A DNA stretch of 64,000 nt from an uncultured Candidatus Saccharibacteria bacterium (GCA_964372905.1 CAYJQY010000006.1:113-64112), one strand, 5' to 3'. Positions 847 to 46,040 are shown, numbered from the stretch's first letter. Program-made: numbers and translations. The notes: generated by a model from the sequence alone, not told the origin.

Positions 847-1764
847 TTACTTCAAAAAAACCACATCCATATATCCTGTGGTGTTTTCGGGATTGCCGGT
901 GAACTCGTAGGAGTTGGCGCGGCGGAAAATATAAGGGCGCGTTTCGTTCCAGGCCCGGGCCAGGGCCAGGGCCAAGCGCACGGCCGCGGGCGAATCAAGG
1001 TGCTGGGCCGTAATTTTTTCGCCCTGCATTTGCTCAATGTAATGAGCGGCTTCCTCGTCGCTTTTATTAGCCACGGCAACTGGCTGGTAATGGTTAAAGT
1101 CCACGCTCACAACCACCGCAATGTTGGAATAAGATACCAAAACTTTCTGCACACTTTCAAGCATATCCGGTGGGACGGTGGGAGCAAAAAGCAGCGGCAC
1201 AATAGTAGCATCGGGAAATAATTTTTTGATGAACACCGCTTCCACGGCCATGGAATGTTCCCCGTCAAAACAGGCATCGTCAATTTTAATTTCATGCTGG
1301 AGCAGTTGGCCAACAATATCTAAATTAACGGTTAGCTCGCCAAAAGGGGTGCGATAAGAACGCCGGGTCGTGGATAGCGGTGCCTGGCAGTGGAGATAAT
1401 GATCCGGCCCCATGATGATAAAAGTATCGCGAGGGCCCGGCGCGGCCTGGAATGTCTTATAAAACTCCGCAATGACCGGTGCGGCCGTGGGCAAATGGTG
1501 GCTGGTTATGCCAATGCGCGTTTCCCCGCTGACCGGTTGAGTCGCCGCACGGTCCAGACTCTGATTGATGAGACTGCCCAACGAGGTTAAATCAAGTCCA
1601 GAACCTGCGGTACCATCTATCCAATTCGCAGCCGCAGGCAGAGACGGCTCGGACGGCGCAACAGATAGCGGTCCGTGTTTGGAAACAAGTGCTAACGCTG
1701 CAACAATACCAACCATTATTAAAACTGCGGCCAGCGGTCGAATAAGCGTCCGAGAATCTTTCAT
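847..1764 (-). CDS. MEMO1 / AmmeMemoRadiSam system protein B family protein with N-terminal TM anchor
   Basis: MGPDHY and later HS...E motifs characteristic of the Memo/extradiol-dioxygenase class III fold. An N-terminal hydrophobic helix suggests membrane anchoring. Confidence 0.6.
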   Translation of the reverse strand: MKDSRTLIRPLAAVLIMVGIVAALALVSKHGPLSVAPSEPSLPAAANWIDGTAGSGLDLTSLGSLINQSLDRAATQPVSGETRIGITSHHLPTAAPVIAEFYKTFQAAPGPRDTFIIMGPDHYLHCQAPLSTTRRSYRTPFGELTVNLDIVGQLLQHEIKIDDACFDGEHSMAVEAVFIKKLFPDATIVPLLFAPTVPPDMLESVQKVLVSYSNIAVVVSVDFNHYQPVAVANKSDEEAAHYIEQMQGEKITAQHLDSPAAVRLALALARAWNETRPYIFRRANSYEFTGNPENTTGYMDVVFLK

Positions 1765-1766
1765 TA

Positions 1767-4700
1767 TTATTTTATCTCGACTTGCGCAGCTGGGCTGATA
1801 TTGAGAACATTCAGGTCCCTGGTCGACTGAATCAATGCCGGATTGGCGCCAAAGTCACCTTTGCTGACCACGCGCGCAAAATAGTTAATAGTGAGTTTGG
1901 AACAATTGGGCGGCGGAAAATAACGGTAGACATTAAAGTAGAGGGCATTATTTTCAATGACCGAAGGATACCACGAAGCATTGCAGTCATTCGGCAAGCT
2001 TAAACCATAGGAGTACGGCTGGGTGATAGGCTTAAGGCCGGAAGGCAGAAAGTCAACGACCTGGTATTCGCCCTCCAAAGCCTGACTGCTGATTTGCGGA
2101 GTTAACACCACACGAACGATGTCGCCGTCACGGAATGAGGTGGTAGCTTTACCATCAACCATATAAGCCCGGCTAACGCTAATGGTGCCATCTTTCTTCA
2201 AAGCCGCGGGGTCCTGACCCCGTTCAAAGTAACTGGTCACGGCAACCTGGCCGGACACTCCGGAAAAACGCAGGCGCGCCAAGTCATCCAAGGACAATGT
2301 CCGCCGGAAGCTTTGGCCGTTTTTCAGTTCGAGAGTTTCAGTTTTATCCCCGATGGTATAACTGAACTTGGCCGATTCAGCGCTGGTGCGGGAAAGTTCC
2401 GAACGCAAGATAAGTACCCGTTCCAAAACATCAAGATCGCGCTCGGGATAATGATTCTGGAGATACTCCCACATCCCAGCGGTATCATCTTTGATGCCGA
2501 GCAAAGAACTCAATTCAGCCATGCTCGCGGTGAGCTTAACTTTTTTGGTGATATCGGTCTCCAAATCCAAGGATTTTTCCGGGCCGTGCGAATCCAGATG
2601 TCCTTGAAGCGCATCAAAATAAATCATGCGGGCATTTTCCAGGTCGCCAAATTTGGCAAAAGCCAAAGCAACATAAAGTTTGTCCGTTGGCGTCAAATCT
2701 TTACTTTGGGCAAAAACTTTTAACAACACTAGGGCCGAAGCCTTGAGACTGGCCAAGCCATAATAGGCCAAGGCCTGCCGGTGAATATCGGTTTTTTCAT
2801 CCTTCAAAGACATTCTAAAATATTCGATAACAGATTGGCGGTACACCATGTCCGGCACCAAGTCAGCAACCTTAGCTGACAATTCTAATTCCGGATCAGA
2901 ATAGCTAAACAAAGCGATACCCCCGCTCCCGGTCTGGTAAGCACCGAGGTCAAGACTTTCAGGTTTGTCTTCGCCAAAGTAGTCTACGAGCAACTGACGG
3001 GCGGCGAAACTGGCCGCTTGCTGGTCAGAGCGAACCCCGCCGTAGGCCAGATTTCGCGTGGCAGCATAGTACCGGCCGCGGCCAGCATCGCTAAACAACA
3101 GCTCGGTAAACCCGTTTTGGTTGCCGGCTATTCCGGTGAGCGACGAAGCCACAGTATACACTTGGCTTTCCCCTGTCTTAAAGTAACTTTTGGCCACATG
3201 GATAGTCCGGACAATGCCGTCGCGCAAATCGCCTTGGCTCGCGGCAATGTGCAGTGCGTGGTCGCCTTCCGGAAGCGCGCCCAAAGGAATGTTCCATTCA
3301 TTATCGCTAGTCCGTTGTTTGGCATTGAGTTTCAAAGTGTCGCTAGTCATACTGTAATCTTTAGCTGCGCCGCTTAGGCCCGTGCCGAAAACTCGCACGC
3401 GTAAGGTCGGACGGTCGCCGACCAGATATTGCTGGTTCATGGTCGCTTCAACAAAGAACGGCAAAGTTGTTTTCACCAGCTTCTCGGCATCCCCAGCCTT
3501 AAGGTTGTCGGGATCAAAAGCCTGGGCAGTCACACGCCAGGAAGTTATATTGTCAGGGCTGGTAAAGCTCAAATGAGCCTTGCCGTTTTCATCGGTTTGC
3601 AGAATTTCGTAGGTTGCGGTATCAAGGAAATTACTGCGCTCGCTGCTGCCGCCTTTTTCTGCATTGTGGACATAGAAATTGTCCGCAAAATAAGTATGAT
3701 AATTACCAACCACAATATTGTAGACTTCGGTGTTGGGCTGAATCACGGTTTCAAGCGAAGTAATGGGCACGCTCGCGCCCGAGGCCAAGAGCAGCGTGTC
3801 GCCTTCGTGCACGTTGCCCGCCGGCTTCCACGAACCGTTGCTGAATATGGTGTGTTCCGGAGTCACTCGCAATTTTTGGTTGATGATGAGGTAATCGCCA
3901 ACCATATGGCTGGAAATTCCCTGGACCACGGCTTTGGCCAGCGTGCCGTTGCGGTCAGACTTGCGCGTCACGATCTCGTCACCGACGCGGATTTGTTCAA
4001 TCGGCTTGCTGCGGCCATTGGCCATAAGTATTTGCGTGCCGGCCAGGAAACAGCCGCCCTTTTCCGCGCCACCGAACTGATTAGGCGTGCCGAGAAGACC
4101 AAAATAGGAAGCCCCGGTCAAAGGCAAAACGTAAATATTCTGGTATAGCCTCGGCAAAATTGACTCCCGATAATCGTAGGGCAAAACATGGAAAATGGCT
4201 TCGTCTACCGCCGCCACGTTAAGCTCGGAACGGACTCCGCGTTTATCTTTATCGGTTACGGCAAAATCAATATTGATCTGCTCGCCCGGCTTGTAAGCAT
4301 CTTTGTCCGATTTGATGTCAATATTCAGCTTCCTATCCTCTTCTTTATACGAAGCATAAATGCTATTGGTCTCAACAAAACCGTAGGGCCCAAGCACTAC
4401 AGCTCGGTACTGGACATTGGGCAGAAAATCCTGGCCGAATGTTTCGCTGAAAGCCAAATCTTGCTGGATGGAAATTCTCGAAATGTTGTTTTGGTAGCGA
4501 TAGAACAGGACATTGGCCCCCGGCTGGAGCTTGCCCTCCTGGACTCCGAGGGTTAAATTGACCTGCTCGCCGACACTGTAATCTTTACTGTAAATCTCAT
4601 CCTTAGTGCCGCCGACAATGCGCAAGTCTACGGCAAACGGATTATTAGGATCATAGGTTTGATAGCCGGCAAAGACTCCAAAACCGTAAGCGCTAAATTC

Positions 4701-7280
4701 AACCTCCAGCTTTCTGCCCTCTCGGTCCTGGCCGTTAATATTCAGCAGGTAATAACCGTTTTCAAGTTTGGGTAAATCTTTCTGGAAGATCCATTCTCCA
4801 TTATTGTCCGTGGTGCCGCTGAAAGAATCAAAACCATCGCGGTGCTCCTCATACCGGTAAAGTTTATACACAATTTTATTGATAGGGTCGTAAGCATCTC
4901 CAGTCTCAACTGGGGTATAGTAGACTTTGATAATTTTGGCCGACAGTGGGTGGCCAGAAACTGGTGGGCCGAAAGAATCGTAACTGTAAAAGTCGCTTGG
5001 GGCAGCAGAATTTTGTTGCAAGACAATATCATTGAGCTTGGCCTTAAATGTGTGCTGGGTGCCCTGCTGTTTGTCTTGGTAGCCCTGGAGATACATATGC
5101 GGACCGAACACTAAAACCGAAGCCTCGGCGTAAATTTCTCCCTCTTCGGCAGCTTGTGGCGCAAAACTCAACATCAATGATCGCGGATAAAAAATATTAG
5201 AACCTTCAATGTATTCCGGAGTTAGCGCGACCGAAGCCTCGCCGTTTTGATTCAGCTTGACCTGGCCGGAAATATCAGAATTCCAGTAACCTCGGTAGTC
5301 CAAAGTCATGTTGGGAACAGGCGTCCCATCAAAAAAAGCAGCTTTAACTTTAAATTCTACGGGCTGTCCGGCAAAAATCTGATCTTTAGAAACAGTAGTA
5401 GTGAGCTGATAAGCCGGCTTGGTATAAGTTTGGACTTCAATGTTGGTGTTAGCCACGACATCAGTGCCATTGAGCACGACCAACGAATAAGTTTGCGGTC
5501 TTAGTCCCTGAAAGTGCAATTCGCCCTGGAAGGTATCAAAATTTGAGACCAAGACATCAGCAGAAACAAGAGGCTTGTTATCTGGCCTTAAAGTATCGCC
5601 TGTATAATAATAGCCTTCAAACAGGCCGACCGTAAGTTTTTTCTCACGCAGATCTTGGGTTCTGCCTTTAGCCACGCCCCAAATTTTTACCGTATCGCTG
5701 ACCTGATAAACCGGCCGGTCAACGGAAATGAATTTCCAATACTGGTCGCCTGTGGGCAAAGTCCCATACCAGCCATCTATAACTTTCACATAAACGGGCT
5801 GACTGGCCGGGATGTCCAGCTTAAAGAAGCCGGGGGTGGTCGGCCCTGATTCATCTTGCAGGACTTGAGGCGGGCTGAACTCGACCAAGCCTTGCGCGTT
5901 GGTGATGCCTAAGCCTCCGCTACTTCCCGCGCCCACAAAAGAAGCTTTGGCTTCCGCAATCGGCGCTTTTTTGCTGAAGTCATACAGCCAGATAAAACCT
6001 TTGTCATGGGTTAAGGAAAAATAATGGGCCGAGTCCGTTATCTGCAGCCACATTTGCCGCCGATTTTGGCCGAACGTAACATCGATAACATAGTATCCTG
6101 GGGCTAGCGCCTGCGGCAGTTCAAAAAAATTTTGGTAATTGACCGTTTGTATGTTGGGCTTGAAGCTGGCTACTTTATTGGCCTTGCCGGGATCAAACAA
6201 AGTGCCGCCGTGGCGATAAAAATTGGTCCAGCCCCACTCCCAGTTGCGGCTATTTTGATAAGAAGTGATAAAATCATCGCCGTTGGCAAGGCGGTAGACA
6301 TCGGCCAAGCTAATTTCTTTGCCCGGGTCAAAGTTATAATAGTAGACAGACAGGGCCGGCTTATTGCTCGGCAGGAATTCGGCAAAATCATTCTGGAAAT
6401 CAAAATACGAAGTATTGCTGCCCTCGTTGCTGCTGGTCTCAAAACTAAAACTAAAATCCTTGTCCAGCTTATCCTCGCTTCCGCTAATCCCTAAACCCTT
6501 GCGGACCGTAACGGTGTAGACCTTGCTTTCTGCAAAACCGCTCGGTACGAAGACCAAGGTATCGTCATGAACTTCAAAACGGCCGGAAACCCTGGGATTT
6601 ATTTCAAAATAATTTTCCGGGTTGGTCAGACCTTCGCGGTTAAATGTAAGTTCGACCCCGGAATTTATCGGCACGAAAGTTCCCTTATTGGCAGGAAAAG
6701 TTTTTATAATCTGAAAAGGCGCTTTAATCTGAAAAGCCCAAGAATATTCCCGATCAGCATAATCGGGATTAGTAATCGCAACTGTGTAGATGGAATCGCC
6801 GGCCAGCGGTTGCTGGGGCGTTAATTCGTAGGCGGAACTAGTGGCGGGAGCATTGGCCGCGAAGACTTCTTTGATAAAAATACCAATGAGATTAAGGCCG
6901 GCAACTTTCTTGACCGAAAAATCCGCTTCAGGACTAAATTTAACAATTTTCTTTATGGCCTGGGTCGACAGCGGCTGGTCGCTTCTTAATGTGAACGATG
7001 TATTCGGCTGCGTTCCAGCCGCATCTTCCTGCTTGGCACTTAATGTAAATTTGGCCGGGTGCGCCGGTTTGGCAAAATAAGTTCGGTAAACAAACCAACC
7101 CGCTACGAGCACAATTACTCCCAGCACAACGCCGGCAATGGCTTTTTTATTTTTGAAATGTGAGGCGAGAGGGCCTCGTGACGCATTCGCAGGCACTGGT
7201 TGTTGCGGAGCCGGGGTCATGCCTGGCGATAGAGGAGCTTGGGGGGCGAAGCTGTCTTCCAACGACTCAATTTCGTTCAT
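1767..7280 (-). CDS. giant (1837 aa) membrane-anchored surface protein with embedded Hint/BIL domain; possible thioester-less alpha-2-macroglobulin-like architecture
   Basis: Single N-terminal TM helix after a short cytoplasmic N-terminus, then a long beta-rich ectodomain with MG-like segments. A C-terminal receptor-binding-like segment (EYQVVDFLPSGLKP) is present and no CxEQ thioester motif is seen. The Hint domain begins CFLAGTQIL and ends FYVHN. Confidence 0.55.
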   Translation of the reverse strand: MNEIESLEDSFAPQAPLSPGMTPAPQQPVPANASRGPLASHFKNKKAIAGVVLGVIVLVAGWFVYRTYFAKPAHPAKFTLSAKQEDAAGTQPNTSFTLRSDQPLSTQAIKKIVKFSPEADFSVKKVAGLNLIGIFIKEVFAANAPATSSAYELTPQQPLAGDSIYTVAITNPDYADREYSWAFQIKAPFQIIKTFPANKGTFVPINSGVELTFNREGLTNPENYFEINPRVSGRFEVHDDTLVFVPSGFAESKVYTVTVRKGLGISGSEDKLDKDFSFSFETSSNEGSNTSYFDFQNDFAEFLPSNKPALSVYYYNFDPGKEISLADVYRLANGDDFITSYQNSRNWEWGWTNFYRHGGTLFDPGKANKVASFKPNIQTVNYQNFFELPQALAPGYYVIDVTFGQNRRQMWLQITDSAHYFSLTHDKGFIWLYDFSKKAPIAEAKASFVGAGSSGGLGITNAQGLVEFSPPQVLQDESGPTTPGFFKLDIPASQPVYVKVIDGWYGTLPTGDQYWKFISVDRPVYQVSDTVKIWGVAKGRTQDLREKKLTVGLFEGYYYTGDTLRPDNKPLVSADVLVSNFDTFQGELHFQGLRPQTYSLVVLNGTDVVANTNIEVQTYTKPAYQLTTTVSKDQIFAGQPVEFKVKAAFFDGTPVPNMTLDYRGYWNSDISGQVKLNQNGEASVALTPEYIEGSNIFYPRSLMLSFAPQAAEEGEIYAEASVLVFGPHMYLQGYQDKQQGTQHTFKAKLNDIVLQQNSAAPSDFYSYDSFGPPVSGHPLSAKIIKVYYTPVETGDAYDPINKIVYKLYRYEEHRDGFDSFSGTTDNNGEWIFQKDLPKLENGYYLLNINGQDREGRKLEVEFSAYGFGVFAGYQTYDPNNPFAVDLRIVGGTKDEIYSKDYSVGEQVNLTLGVQEGKLQPGANVLFYRYQNNISRISIQQDLAFSETFGQDFLPNVQYRAVVLGPYGFVETNSIYASYKEEDRKLNIDIKSDKDAYKPGEQINIDFAVTDKDKRGVRSELNVAAVDEAIFHVLPYDYRESILPRLYQNIYVLPLTGASYFGLLGTPNQFGGAEKGGCFLAGTQILMANGRSKPIEQIRVGDEIVTRKSDRNGTLAKAVVQGISSHMVGDYLIINQKLRVTPEHTIFSNGSWKPAGNVHEGDTLLLASGASVPITSLETVIQPNTEVYNIVVGNYHTYFADNFYVHNAEKGGSSERSNFLDTATYEILQTDENGKAHLSFTSPDNITSWRVTAQAFDPDNLKAGDAEKLVKTTLPFFVEATMNQQYLVGDRPTLRVRVFGTGLSGAAKDYSMTSDTLKLNAKQRTSDNEWNIPLGALPEGDHALHIAASQGDLRDGIVRTIHVAKSYFKTGESQVYTVASSLTGIAGNQNGFTELLFSDAGRGRYYAATRNLAYGGVRSDQQAASFAARQLLVDYFGEDKPESLDLGAYQTGSGGIALFSYSDPELELSAKVADLVPDMVYRQSVIEYFRMSLKDEKTDIHRQALAYYGLASLKASALVLLKVFAQSKDLTPTDKLYVALAFAKFGDLENARMIYFDALQGHLDSHGPEKSLDLETDITKKVKLTASMAELSSLLGIKDDTAGMWEYLQNHYPERDLDVLERVLILRSELSRTSAESAKFSYTIGDKTETLELKNGQSFRRTLSLDDLARLRFSGVSGQVAVTSYFERGQDPAALKKDGTISVSRAYMVDGKATTSFRDGDIVRVVLTPQISSQALEGEYQVVDFLPSGLKPITQPYSYGLSLPNDCNASWYPSVIENNALYFNVYRYFPPPNCSKLTINYFARVVSKGDFGANPALIQSTRDLNVLNISPAAQVEIK
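3663..4052 (-). other. Hint / bacterial intein-like (BIL) domain inside the giant protein
   Basis: Translation reads GGAEKGG|CFLAGTQILMANG...TPEHTIFS...NIVVGNYHTYFADNFYVHN|AEKGG. An N-terminal Cys and a terminal His-Asn are present, with no homing-endonuclease insert (~130 aa). The +1 residue is Ala, which matches a BIL domain better than a splicing intein. Confidence 0.75.
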
Positions 7281-15195: not shown

Positions 15196-16299
15196 TCATC
15201 CCACCAAGCCCCGCAAATACTCCACAAACTCCCGGGCCACATTGAACCCGCTGGCCTCCTCGAACGGCTTGAGGCCGGGCCAGCGGTTGACTTCCAAAAC
15301 ATAGAAGCGGCCTGGCGCGTCGGTATTTTCTCCATGCACGGTGCTGGAACCAGGCGCGCCGTTGGAACCGCCCGTCGCCGGGACTTCCAGCACATCAATC
15401 TTGCACAGTTCGCGCTCGGTGGCGCGCGCGGCGCGCTCCATGAACTTGGTCAGCTCCGGCACCCGCGCCGTCTGTATCACCTCAAAGTCTTTTAAGTCCG
15501 GCACATGCTTTTCGGGATTGATGCCATAGCGCACGGCCACGGGCAACGCCTTGTACCCAACCACGATAAACTTGTACTCGCGCGGCGCACGAATAAACTC
15601 CTGCACCAGGATCTCCTCGGCCAGATAGCGCGCCGCAATTTCGGCCAAACGCGCGGCTGAATCCACATAGTACACATGCTGGGCGCCAAAGCCAAAATTC
15701 CACTTTAGAACTTTGGGATATTTTATTGAGGCGCGGCCCTTGGACCCGCGGCCGCCAGAACGGCCATCGCTGCCGCTAGGGCCGCCCCTCGGGCTGCCGC
15801 CCGCGGCGCTAAATGCGCGCCCGGCCGCGCCTTCGGCAGTGCCGCCCACGCCACCGATGCCAACCAGACGCCCGGCTCCCGCCCCACCGGAGGCCGCACC
15901 CCCCGCCGCATCTATCTCCGCCAACACCTCGGTTCGTGGCACAGGCACGCCGGCCTGCTCCAAGGCCCGGTAGACCTCTAATTTGCCTTTGCCAAGCCCG
16001 TTTTTGGCCAGGGCGCTGTCAATAACCACCTTTCCAGCATCAGAAAAACTGCGGGCCAAATCCACAATTGGGCGCAATTTCAGCGACCCCATTTTGTGGC
16101 CTGTTTCAACATAGCCTTGCCGCACGAACAGGGCATCAAACGCCCCGATATCTACCTTATAATTTGCCGCGGCCAATTCGCGAATGTCCATGGCTGTCAC
16201 GGCCACGCCGGCCGCGCGGCCTTCCTCCTTCAGTCGCCGTGTGGCATAAGCATCTTTCGGTGAAATCAATAATAAACGCATAACTGTCATGTTAGCCAA
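15196..16299 (-). CDS. RimK-like ATP-grasp ligase with Gly-rich low-complexity insertion
   Basis: A pre-ATP-grasp N-domain is followed by ATP-grasp motifs (EFIRAPREYKFIVVG..., FYVLEVNRWPGL). A ~60-aa Gly/Ala/Ser/Arg-rich insert separates the domains. Confidence 0.65.
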   Translation of the reverse strand: MANMTVMRLLLISPKDAYATRRLKEEGRAAGVAVTAMDIRELAAANYKVDIGAFDALFVRQGYVETGHKMGSLKLRPIVDLARSFSDAGKVVIDSALAKNGLGKGKLEVYRALEQAGVPVPRTEVLAEIDAAGGAASGGAGAGRLVGIGGVGGTAEGAAGRAFSAAGGSPRGGPSGSDGRSGGRGSKGRASIKYPKVLKWNFGFGAQHVYYVDSAARLAEIAARYLAEEILVQEFIRAPREYKFIVVGYKALPVAVRYGINPEKHVPDLKDFEVIQTARVPELTKFMERAARATERELCKIDVLEVPATGGSNGAPGSSTVHGENTDAPGRFYVLEVNRWPGLKPFEEASGFNVAREFVEYLRGLVG

Positions 16300-16319: not shown

Positions 16320-17381
16320 ATGCCGTCAGAGCAAGATATTGGGCGACGCCGGCAGCAGCACAGGCAGAAGCGTCAGCGTGGCACAACAAAACCTATGGAA
16401 ACCCAAAATCAAAAAAACCAACCCTCCAACAAATCTGCGCTACAGAAATACTTCAACGACTTCCTCGAATACTGCGAGGTTGAAAAAAATCGCAGCCAGA
16501 AAACTATCGAAGGATACGCCCACTATCTGCGCCGCTTTGTGGGGTTCGCCGAACGCAACGGCGTGACCAAGCCGGAAAAAATCACTCTTGATTTAGTGAG
16601 GTCATTTCGCCTCTACCTAAATCGCATGCAGGATGGGCATGGGCACAATCTCAAATTACTCACCCAGAGTTATCACGTTATTGCCTTGCGCTCCTTTTTG
16701 AAATATTTGATAAAACGCGACATGGCCACGCTGGCGCCGGAGAAAATTGAACTGCCCAAAACCCCCAGCCGCGAAGTCAGCGTGCTGGAAGTCAGCGAAA
16801 TAGAACGGATGCTGGATGCGGCCAAGCGGGAAAAAAACGAATTGCTCCGCTTGCGCGACCACGCCATTTTGTTGACGTTATTTTCTAGCGGCGTGCGTAT
16901 CTCCGAACTAACCCAAATCCGCCGCACCACAATTAATCTTAAGCGCGGTGAATGCACGGTACGCGGCAAAGGCGATAAACTCCGCCTGGTCTTTCTCTCC
17001 CCCGACGCCATTGCCGCTCTTGCACTGTATCTAAAAAAACGGAGCGATAATAATCCTTTCCTGTTTGTAAACCACACGACTGTCGGGCAAAACGTGACCA
17101 AACAAATAGAGGCACAAGACGCAAAAAAAGGCGCGGGGCTCACGCCGCGCAGCGTCCAGCGCATGATAAAAAAATACGCGCTCATTGCCGGCATCATGCG
17201 CAAGGTCAGCCCGCATACCTTCCGACATTCTTACGCCACCGACCTGCTGCGGAACGGCGCCGACATCCGCAGCGTCCAGTCGCTCCTCGGCCACGCCTCC
17301 ATCACCACGACGCAAATTTACACCCACGTCACCAACCAGGGCCTGCGCGAAATTCATCGGAAGTTTCATAATAAAAAGTAA
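16320..17381 (+). CDS. tyrosine site-specific recombinase (XerC/XerD-like)
   Basis: The C-terminal catalytic motifs HTFRHSYATDLLRNGADIRSVQSLLGHASITTTQIYTHV contain the R..H..R..Y residues. A basic N-terminal extension is present, and an alternative start METQNQ lies at 16395. Confidence 0.85.
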   Translation: MPSEQDIGRRRQQHRQKRQRGTTKPMETQNQKNQPSNKSALQKYFNDFLEYCEVEKNRSQKTIEGYAHYLRRFVGFAERNGVTKPEKITLDLVRSFRLYLNRMQDGHGHNLKLLTQSYHVIALRSFLKYLIKRDMATLAPEKIELPKTPSREVSVLEVSEIERMLDAAKREKNELLRLRDHAILLTLFSSGVRISELTQIRRTTINLKRGECTVRGKGDKLRLVFLSPDAIAALALYLKKRSDNNPFLFVNHTTVGQNVTKQIEAQDAKKGAGLTPRSVQRMIKKYALIAGIMRKVSPHTFRHSYATDLLRNGADIRSVQSLLGHASITTTQIYTHVTNQGLREIHRKFHNKK

Positions 17382-45828: not shown

Positions 45829-45903
45829 GTCCCCGTGGTGAAATGGATATCACGACAGTCTTCGGAACTGTTGTTGGGGGTTCGAATCCCTCCGGGGACA
45901 CCA
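45829..45903 (+). tRNA. tRNA-Arg (anticodon TCG)
   Basis: Acceptor GTCCCCG/CGGGGAC and D-arm GTGAAATGGATATCAC (argW-like). The anticodon stem ACAGT/ACTGT has loop CTTCGGA, and the CCA is encoded. TTGCGG-17-TATAAT lies upstream. Confidence 0.8.
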
Positions 45904-45964
45904 GGAATCAAGCTGTCGTTGAAAAATTTTATAGGTTATAATAAACTATCTATGTTGAAAATAC

Positions 45965-46040
45965 GGGTCGGTAGCTCAGCTGGCAGAGCAGTCCGCTCTT
46001 AACGGAAAGCGCGTGGGTTCGAATCCCACCCGACCCACCA
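45965..46040 (+). tRNA. tRNA-Lys (anticodon CTT)
   Basis: Acceptor GGGTCGG/CCGACCC and D-arm GCTCAGCTGGCAGAGC. The anticodon loop is CTCTTAA, the T-arm is GTGGGTTCGAATCCCAC, and the CCA is encoded. It resembles E. coli tRNA-Lys. Confidence 0.8.

Follow-up and report, generated by a model that had tools for sequence, protein, structure and literature searches.

In our study, a 64,000-nucleotide stretch of DNA from an uncultured Candidatus Saccharibacteria bacterium (GCA_964372905.1, CAYJQY010000006.1:113-64112), referred to below as the window, was found to contain a gene for a homologue of alpha-2-macroglobulin (A2M) with an embedded domain of the Hint superfamily. The protein lacks the CxEQ thioester motif and is held by one N-terminal membrane helix. 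Its Hint domain is of the bacterial intein-like (BIL) kind and appears to sit at the bait region, which proteases cut in other A2Ms. We lean towards the reading that the BIL is a fixed part of a family of thioester-less, membrane-anchored A2M homologues of the Patescibacteria, and that these proteins cut themselves at the bait into two chains.

The gene was read from the open reading frame (ORF) list and the translation. It runs on the minus strand from 7280 to 1767, starts with ATG and encodes 1837 amino acids (aa); coding of 1767-7280 on the plus strand was ruled out, since that frame is full of stops. An identical 1837-aa protein was present in three separate assemblies, which excludes an assembly chimera. 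The features of the gene, from the N-terminus of the protein to its C-terminus, were as follows (coordinates are those of the window; MG, macroglobulin; TED, thioester domain; pLDDT, predicted local distance difference test).

1767..7280, minus strand: A2M-like gene, membrane-anchored, thioester-less, with an embedded Hint (ORF, Pfam, Foldseek)
7143-7280, minus strand: Pro-rich cytoplasmic tail of 46 aa, ahead of the transmembrane helix
7086..7142, minus strand: N-terminal transmembrane helix, aa 47-65, AIAGVVLGVIVLVAGWFVY (Kyte-Doolittle mean 2.45)
6435..6722, minus strand: Big_5 (bacterial Ig-like), aa 187-282, start of the MG-type beta-sandwich array (Pfam E 3e-9)
4188..4586, minus strand: A2M_BRD (bait-region domain), aa 899-1031 (Pfam E 6e-9, above cut-off)
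4056..4118, minus strand: disordered bait-like loop, aa 1055-1075, PLTGASYFGLLGTPNQFGGAEKG, leading into the Hint (pLDDT <50, model residues 416-436)
4053..4067, minus strand: N-flank AEKGG, aa 1072-1076, GCGGAAAAGGGCGGC
3663..4052, minus strand: Hint domain, 130 aa, type-A BIL / PT-HINT kind, aa 1077-1206 (Pfam, profile, model)
4050-4052, minus strand: Cys1 (Cys1077)
3852-3863, minus strand: block B TPEH, aa 1140-1143
3711-3725, minus strand: VYNIV
3684-3698, minus strand: HTYFA
3663-3668, minus strand: terminal His-Asn (...FYVHN)
3648..3662, minus strand: C-flank AEKGG, aa 1207-1211, GCAGAAAAAGGCGGC
3387..3608, minus strand: A2M domain, aa 1225-1298 (Pfam E 1e-9)
2388..3086, minus strand: helical TED-like domain without thioester, aa 1399-1631 (the only helical block in the model)
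1824..2180, minus strand: bMG10 (C-terminal bacterial MG10), aa 1701-1819 (Pfam E 5.5e-6)

The Hint domain starts with CFLAGTQILMANG and ends with VGNYHTYFADNFYVHN. It contains the N-terminal nucleophile of block A and the T-x-x-H of block B that mark the Hint superfamily. Pfam PT-HINT matched aa 1092-1200 of the whole protein (E 6e-10) and exceeded its gathering score on the isolated Hint segment (E 7.5e-12), for which Vint, Hom_end_hint and Hint_2 were also near or over their cut-offs. A profile built from the Hint segments of 20 family members was searched against the PDB. The best match was the bacterial intein-like domain 2LWY (2lwy_A, E 5.9e-16), whose 138-aa chain aligned with the Hint end to end. 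It outranked the Hint of a toxin-type protein, mini-inteins were far behind (E ~1e-9), and the matches to Hedgehog chains were weak. In the AlphaFold model, the Hint segment formed a high-confidence beta-rich fold. A C-terminal His-Asn and the absence of a nucleophile at +1 define the type-A BILs (PMC4031507); both were found here, together with the mini size and the lack of a homing-endonuclease insert. The domain differs from canonical class 1 inteins, as its +1 residue is Ala1207 and not the Cys, Ser or Thr that serves their trans-esterification and splicing, and as its site is a disordered, variable, Gly-rich loop of a surface protein, in contrast to the conserved positions in conserved and mostly essential proteins that inteins occupy. 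From its sequence, the domain is assigned to the type-A BILs (Pfam PT-HINT), with intact catalytic residues. No second Hint copy was found within the window.

The host protein is a thioester-less bacterial A2M homologue with one N-terminal membrane helix; aa 47-65 is its sole strongly hydrophobic 19-mer. The AlphaFold2 model, built for aa 640-1837 with 45 homologues, had a mean pLDDT of 85 and a predicted template modelling score (pTM) of 0.62. In Foldseek searches against the PDB, the top matches of this model were ECAM (5a42, E 4.6e-43) and Salmonella A2M (4u48, E 3e-41), followed by eukaryotic A2M, C5, CD109 and TEP1. The elements of the A2M superfamily were all found, namely the MG array, bait-region domain, A2M domain, helical TED and C-terminal MG domain. 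The A2M domain begins right past a conserved R-x-x-F-x-D and includes PDNITSW (nt 3537-3557), and bMG10 includes EYQVVDFLPSGLKP (nt 2028-2069), in a region that the family profile aligns with the C-terminal MG domain of ECAM. The TED-like block (model residues 760-992) contains no Cys, and AYGGVRSDQQAAS (nt 3009-3047) was judged by eye, without alignment to a solved A2M, to occupy the expected place of CxEQ. Only three Cys residues (1077, 1766 and 1793) occur in the protein, none of them within a CxEQ motif, and the motif was absent from all family sequences inspected. The protein differs from the ECAM-like type I in the absence of CxEQ and in having no adjacent pbpC. It shares with the type II bacterial A2Ms, of which MagD is thioester-less with a bait region (PMC5764988), the combination of a bait and no thioester, and differs from them in its gene context, which is not a magABCDEF operon.

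The Hint domain was placed between Pfam A2M_BRD and A2M, straight after the 21-residue loop at aa 1055-1075. The pLDDT was below 50 in this loop and at model residues 568-573 (aa 1207-1212), which hold the second AEKGG; the other low-confidence stretches of the model were two short loops of the MG array (aa 756-764 and 866-880). The family profile aligned the Gly-rich motif around the insert (GGAE-KGG...R-x-x-F) with ...RFGGDGDELKRGG... of ECAM. By this alignment the ECAM counterpart would lie directly past RYGADIYDIYGQVIEGQGRL, counted from Arg923-Leu942 in the numbering as counted here. In ECAM the bait region lies within MG8, and part of it turns disordered upon elastase cleavage (PMC4498604); RYGADIYDIYGQVIEGQGRL is presumably that stretch. 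The ECAM alignment and the low-confidence loop thus suggest that the bait loop has the Hint attached at its C-terminal end. By model and alignment, it would lie between the two halves of the bait-carrying MG domain.

An initial annotation of this DNA had described the same 1837-aa single-pass protein and the same Hint, with its start, TPEH block and end, and both were confirmed: one helix was detected and the Hint coordinates were exact. The minus strand of the gene is an amendment to it. It had also expected BIL-type processing by a domain with no endonuclease insert and Ala at +1, to which the 130-aa length and 2LWY as closest structure correspond. Its proposal of a thioester-less A2M-type host with the Hint at the bait is borne out by the lack of CxEQ, by Pfam A2M_BRD, A2M and bMG10 over EYQVVDFLPSGLKP, by the ECAM match of the aa 640-1837 model, and by the position of the insert after the low-confidence loop. 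A missing block B in a profile alignment had been named as evidence against a Hint; PT-HINT matched, and the TxxH is present.

The Hint is bounded on both sides by the pentapeptide AEKGG, directly before Cys1 and directly after Asn, as had been annotated with the exact nucleotides. The final two Gly of the N-flank copy are positions -2/-1 of the scissile Gly-Cys bond; in the C-flank copy, Ala is the non-nucleophilic +1 residue and Lys stands at +3. Two 5-mers were repeated within 200 aa in the protein against 0.28 expected, a value reached by 4% of shuffles, so the pentapeptide repeat by itself is only weakly unusual. It is taken as real because the copies are flush against both ends of the Hint and the flank pattern recurs across the family. 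Hint-bearing relatives were found to contain G-A-E-x-G-G ahead of Cys1 and x-(E)-K-G-G past Asn, the exact AEKGG/AEKGG pair being limited to a subset. Where the Hint is absent, relatives have just one Gly-rich motif in this place: GGGGAEKGGGG in P0023, GGGGAEQGGG in P0024, GGGGAEKGGG in P0026, GGGGAERGGGG in P0027 and GGGKGGGG in P0028. A plain tandem AEKGG pair in such relatives had been named as evidence against an insertion, and only the one motif occurs. The two flanks of one protein shared at least four residues in 11% of cases, compared with 4.7 +/- 1.6% in mismatched pairs; subfamily structure may be the source of this excess. The two 15-nt copies in the window differ at two synonymous positions, and the adjoining DNA does not match. 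The DNA comparison is uninformative on recency, and AEKGG as a DNA-level scar of a recent event was rejected. The flanks had been proposed as the footprint of domain insertion: the part that stands is a duplicated host motif, present once where the Hint is absent, and the part that falls is a recent insertion scar, because both halves are conserved among proteins of only 30% identity, which points to an old, selected duplication.

The same architecture was found in about 165 related proteins and in at least 80 Patescibacteria genomes. A word-index search yielded 20 homologues with the Hint (30-48% identity) and about 25 that lack it, the latter 1620-1760 aa long. With aa 1000-1300 as query, an exhaustive HMMER search over 1.84 billion cluster representatives gave 367 matches at E<=1e-30, of which the top 150 were mostly 1700-1900 aa long and aligned end to end over the bait domain, the Hint and the A2M domain. 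A genome scan with one genome per species gave 568 relatives; the best 80 of the 568 loci were analysed, and the full junction was present in all 80. They belong to Saccharibacteria, Doudna-, Portnoy-, Uhr-, Peregrini-, Peri-, Magasanik-, Dojka-, Gottesman-, Moran-, Kerfeld-, Gracili-, Falkow- and Wildermuthbacteria and other Patescibacteria.

Residues were counted in 125 family proteins, a set made non-redundant at 50% identity. Conservation was complete for Cys1 and for the terminal His-Asn (125/125 each), and residues were kept as follows elsewhere: Phe2 in 124/125, VHN in 121/125, and block B T-x-x-H in every listed variant. Gly occupied position -1 in 120/125 and -2 in 115/125, and A-E stood at -5/-4 in about 80. 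The +1 residue was D in 48, E in 26, A in 22, Q in 16, S in 5, N in 3, K in 2, and I, T or C in one each; Ser, Thr or Cys was present at +1 in 7/125 only. Lys was found at +2 or +3 in 122/125. The Hint measured 127-131 aa in nearly all relatives, and no degenerate copy was found among the ~165 proteins, including sequences missed by the first motif pattern. The mean Kimura-corrected distance was 0.98 for the Hint and 1.55 for the host, the Hint being the slower-evolving part. These sequence comparisons show a catalytically complete Hint under purifying selection.

The distances of Hint and host were correlated in the first 21 proteins (r = 0.87); over 7750 pairs the Spearman coefficient was 0.37, falling to 0.09 for the distant half, and as a domain of 130 aa saturates, co-divergence cannot prove deep vertical inheritance. 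Host trees were built by neighbour-joining with midpoint rooting only. Hint-less lineages (P0021/22, P0023-27 and P0030) were nested among Hint-bearing ones, with a minimum of five state changes. On these midpoint-rooted trees we tentatively read this as an old acquisition in the candidate phyla radiation (CPR) with several precise losses; the flanking repeat would favour such losses.

Some records of the family stood apart. Many that carry the A2M-like gene are titled 'uncultured Gammaproteobacteria bacterium' (L013, L014, L020, L038, L043 and others), one further record is titled Nanoarchaeia and one WOR-1 (L056; L063); these are probably mislabelled or mis-binned metagenome-assembled genomes and not genuine cases from beyond the Patescibacteria. 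The longest frame through the gene was much shorter, 928-1553 aa, in L058 (CP181398.1, a Kerfeldbacteria chromosome), L018, L042 and L051, which could be due to pseudogenes, frameshifts or an alternative genetic code. The closest relatives of the Hint outside A2M-like proteins occur as 2 to 10 tandem PT-HINT-type Hints together with Tim44-like, PKD, Big_9 or cadherin-like domains (P0087, P0103, P0114, P0144, P0169, P0189, P0193 and P0197), and these look like self-fragmenting polyproteins.

On the reading that we favour, the protein would be exported and its ectodomain would fold, after which a thioester would form between Cys1077 and Gly1076 and Asn1206 would cyclise. With a non-nucleophilic +1 residue (Ala here, Asp, Glu or Gln in relatives), the expected outcome is mainly cleavage at one or both ends of the Hint, and not splicing. 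The precursor would give a membrane-anchored N-terminal MG chain ending in ...AEKGG and a C-terminal chain of MG, CUB-like, TED-like and MG10 domains beginning with AEKGG.... Both chains would remain non-covalently associated, since the bait loop of known bacterial A2Ms leaves and re-enters one and the same MG domain; the fragments of MagD cut at the bait run together in gel filtration (PMC5764988). The protein would then perform on itself the bait cut that proteases make in other A2Ms, as maturation or priming of the trap, and in relatives linked to an extracytoplasmic function (ECF) sigma factor the self-cut could serve as the built-in first cut of a transmembrane signalling device. The self-cleavage itself is a step that we infer from the residues at the junction. 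In BILs without a +1 nucleophile, products of N- and C-cleavage prevail, and a single mutation turns such BILs into efficient splicers (PMC7664689; PMC4031507). Ser, Thr and Cys are nearly absent at +1 though one substitution suffices, which argues that efficient splicing has not been selected.

Several points weigh against this reading. The sequence does not separate cleavage from splicing, nor does it give rates, and type-A BILs that lack a +1 nucleophile can still splice, if inefficiently (PMC4031507); a spliced junction made from the doubled AEKGG linker would be harmless. Fast constitutive cleavage, if it triggered the A2M conformational change, would spend the trap before a protease arrives. 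The thioester must form extracellularly, where Cys1 could be oxidised. Hint-less relatives, some of them nested in Hint-bearing clades, evidently function without the domain. The window gene has no sigma factor upstream, its neighbour there being tgt (tRNA-guanine transglycosylase), and since the N-terminal tails of the sigma-linked relatives gave no match to a known anti-sigma domain, gene order is the sole basis of the signalling idea.

A possible but doubtful alternative is that the BIL is a benign passenger that splices itself out, the freed amine of Ala1207 attacking the Gly1076 thioester by aminolysis. The product would be a single-chain A2M-like protein with a ...GGAEKGG-AEKGGSS... bait linker, and the Hint would have no function for the host; it would persist because an unprocessed 130-aa insert disables the protein and precise deletion is rare. 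The capacity of type-A BILs with His-Asn to splice without a +1 nucleophile (PMC4031507) agrees with this, as do the flexible Gly-rich flanks on either side, which would help the ends meet, and the likeness of the spliced junction to the single GGGGAEKGGGG linker of Hint-less relatives. The patchy presence on the host tree, with at least five changes, is also that of a dispensable element. Against it, cleavage products predominate in the BILs that have been studied, type-A ones that can splice included (PMC4031507, PMC7664689), and Cys, Ser or Thr at +1, which would give efficient splicing, is avoided in 118/125 proteins. A homing endonuclease is lacking, and the insert occupies a variable loop rather than a conserved essential site. 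The Hint is moreover better conserved than its host, with zero decayed copies among about 165. It is rather unlikely, though conceivable, that the Hint acts as a reactive centre in place of CxEQ, resolved by an amine (an 'isopeptide splice' if by the Lys at +2/+3), and/or that the self-cut is the constitutive first cleavage of a giant A2M-type anti-sigma factor, which would set an ECF sigma factor free once protease attack has led to the loss of the C-terminal chain.

The thioester might instead be handed to an outside nucleophile, as in Hedgehog autoprocessing, which we regard as improbable. The Gly1076-Cys1077 thioester would be resolved by a lysine of the attacking protease, a cell-wall amine or the C-flank Lys at +2/+3, so that the membrane-anchored N-terminal chain becomes covalently attached and the Hint supplies the thioester missing from the TED. 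At the Hedgehog processing site the scissile context is likewise G-G|C-F, and this likeness, together with the weak profile matches to Hedgehog chains, speaks for such a transfer. So do the thioester-forming Cys1 in every member of a family without CxEQ, the Lys at +2/+3 in 122/125, which simple cleavage does not explain, and the location of the Hint exactly where a bait-cutting protease would be held. The invariant His-Asn, however, points to Asn cyclisation, which Hedgehog-type transfer does not need; relatives with neither Hint nor thioester exist, and the Lys, which also occurs in the single linker of several of them, may be an inherited linker or bait residue. The acceptor is not nameable from sequence, and MagD traps its protease without a thioester (PMC5764988). 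A pretoxin HINT of a polymorphic toxin, releasing a C-terminal toxin module, is very improbable. PT-HINT is the best Pfam model and NCBI calls one homologue a 'polymorphic toxin-type HINT domain-containing protein', but the 630 residues past the Hint are a conserved half of A2M, CUB-like, TED-like and MG10 domains that can be aligned within the family and to ECAM, and the downstream gene is a conserved Memo-like gene rather than an immunity gene. With neither a variable toxin tip nor an immunity gene, toxin release was excluded by domain content.

The gene neighbourhood was examined in the window and in the related loci. The gene downstream of the A2M-like gene was as follows.

847..1764, minus strand: Memo-like gene (AmmeMemoRadiSam protein B family) with its own N-terminal membrane helix (Pfam Memo E 2e-23; TIGR04336 E 7e-33)

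This gene lies 2 nt downstream of the A2M-like stop on the same strand, and the pairing is kept in different CPR lineages: among the 80 genome loci (L008-L087), a Memo-like gene was directly downstream in 53/74 with enough sequence, and it was also found in L001-L004. PGA_cap and YkuD/Peptidase_S11 cell-wall genes follow it in some loci or are fused to it. Upstream, where the window has tgt, an ECF sigma factor gene was found directly adjacent and often overlapping in 31/69 loci (for example L002 5447-6004, L007 9484-10014, L008, L015 and L021). From gene order, the sigma-linked relatives look like giant anti-sigma factors with an A2M ectodomain. Their proteins share a short N-terminal motif, ..IIDKLFSKL.., unlike the Pro-rich tail of the window protein, and neither their N-terminal tails nor that of the window protein gave a Pfam match to an anti-sigma domain. 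No sigma homologue was detected by tblastn anywhere in the window, and the window gene accordingly does not form an ECF sigma/anti-sigma pair. Of two Hint-less relatives, P0021 has the sigma link and P0024 the Memo link, so both associations belong to the A2M-like family and not to the Hint.

The remainder of the window contained further genes. A class A penicillin-binding protein gene (transglycosylase, transpeptidase and Big_7; 17916-20363, plus strand) lies about 10.6 kb from the A2M-like gene. It converges with a second giant ORF (20317-25812, minus strand; 1831 aa, Leu/Glu-rich, no Pfam match), the two 3' ends overlapping by about 45 nt. This ORF was considered as an A2M-like paralogue and rejected, since it showed no blastp similarity and no Pfam match. 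A tyrosine recombinase gene (16320-17381, plus strand; Phage_integrase and, at the N-terminus, a SAM-like domain) is probably of the XerC/D kind and is oriented divergently to an ATP-grasp-like gene (15196-16299, minus strand). Six tRNA genes (Arg-GCG, Arg-TCT, Arg-TCG, Lys-CTT, Pro-TGG and Gly-TCC) were found at 26098-26174, 27246-27322, 45829-46040 and 58617-58799. Genetic code 11 suits all ORFs of the window.

Literature linking the A2M family with a Hint, BIL or intein, or describing this CPR family, was not found in a search whose coverage left out most subscription journals. Neither building block is new in itself, and precomputed Pfam annotations already show the architecture. What we rate as new is a BIL integrated into its host at a fixed position, and an A2M whose bait would process itself. 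A self-cutting domain and an A2M are combined exactly at the activating site, which specialists of both fields would not expect, and the combination is kept intact across hundreds of lineages of Patescibacteria, ultra-small bacteria with tiny genomes whose cells are attached to those of others. Should the Hint make the bait cut, the macroglobulin would mature or arm itself without a protease, in parallel with the two-chain processing of C3/C4/C5, and BIL domains, whose biological role is still poorly defined, would gain a distinct task in the host. The frequent partners of the gene, an ECF sigma factor and a Memo-like exported protein, suggest a hitherto unstudied sensing module at the CPR cell surface; should the thioester or anti-sigma reading be true, it would be a protease-sensing signalling or capture device specific to these bacteria.

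Compared with known systems, the Hint is closest to BIL4 of Clostridium thermocellum (2LWY), with which it shares a length of about 130 aa, Cys1, T-x-x-H and His-Asn, and the absence of an endonuclease and of a +1 nucleophile. Like other type-A BILs, it occurs in a non-conserved region of a secreted or surface protein. Known BILs are found in variable regions of adhesins, cellulosomal proteins, FhaB/MafB and Rhs-type toxins, where they release or diversify C-terminal modules. The present domain, in contrast, occupies one fixed site in the A2M bait loop, is flanked on both sides by a conserved Gly-rich motif, and has co-diverged with its host among closer relatives, weakly so at depth. With canonical mini-inteins such as Mtu RecA it shares the fold and the catalytic blocks (E ~1e-9), and it differs from them in having no Cys, Ser or Thr at +1, no conserved essential site and no trace of an endonuclease.

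The host protein has the same fold as ECAM/YfhM, Salmonella A2M and Pseudomonas MagD and the same order of MG array, bait domain, A2M/MG, CUB, TED and MG10. It is likewise anchored in the cytoplasmic membrane and faces outward, and like MagD it has no CxEQ. Unlike these proteins, it is anchored by an N-terminal transmembrane helix instead of a lipid or signal peptide. It is accompanied by a Memo-like gene and, in relatives, by an ECF sigma factor, instead of an adjacent pbpC or magABCEF; the class A penicillin-binding protein gene of the window, about 10.6 kb away on the opposite strand, is unlike the adjacent pbpC of ECAM-type A2Ms. No described A2M with a self-processing domain in the bait loop was found in the literature searched. 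In complement C3/C4/C5, the anaphylatoxin domain stands at what would be the topological equivalent of the position of the Hint insert. These proteins, several of which were among the Foldseek matches, are processed there into two associated chains. They differ in being cut by furin and convertases, in that the inserted domain is a helical bundle, and in the thioester of C3 and C4. A proposed extracytoplasmic self-cut in a single-pass membrane protein also recalls the SEAL domain of RsgI and the SEA and GAIN domains, and nearly half of the A2M-like relatives lie directly behind an ECF sigma gene. In RsgI-type proteins autoproteolysis is constitutive, the fragments are held by an undisrupted beta-sheet, and the partner is an ECF-type sigma factor (PMC10556640, PMC10328401). 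The Hint differs from RsgI SEAL in its fold and in its predicted chemistry of thioester formation and Asn cyclisation, and the window gene has no sigma neighbour. By analogy, furin-processed two-chain complement and the constitutive autoproteolysis of RsgI would be the closest functional counterparts of this self-cutting macroglobulin.

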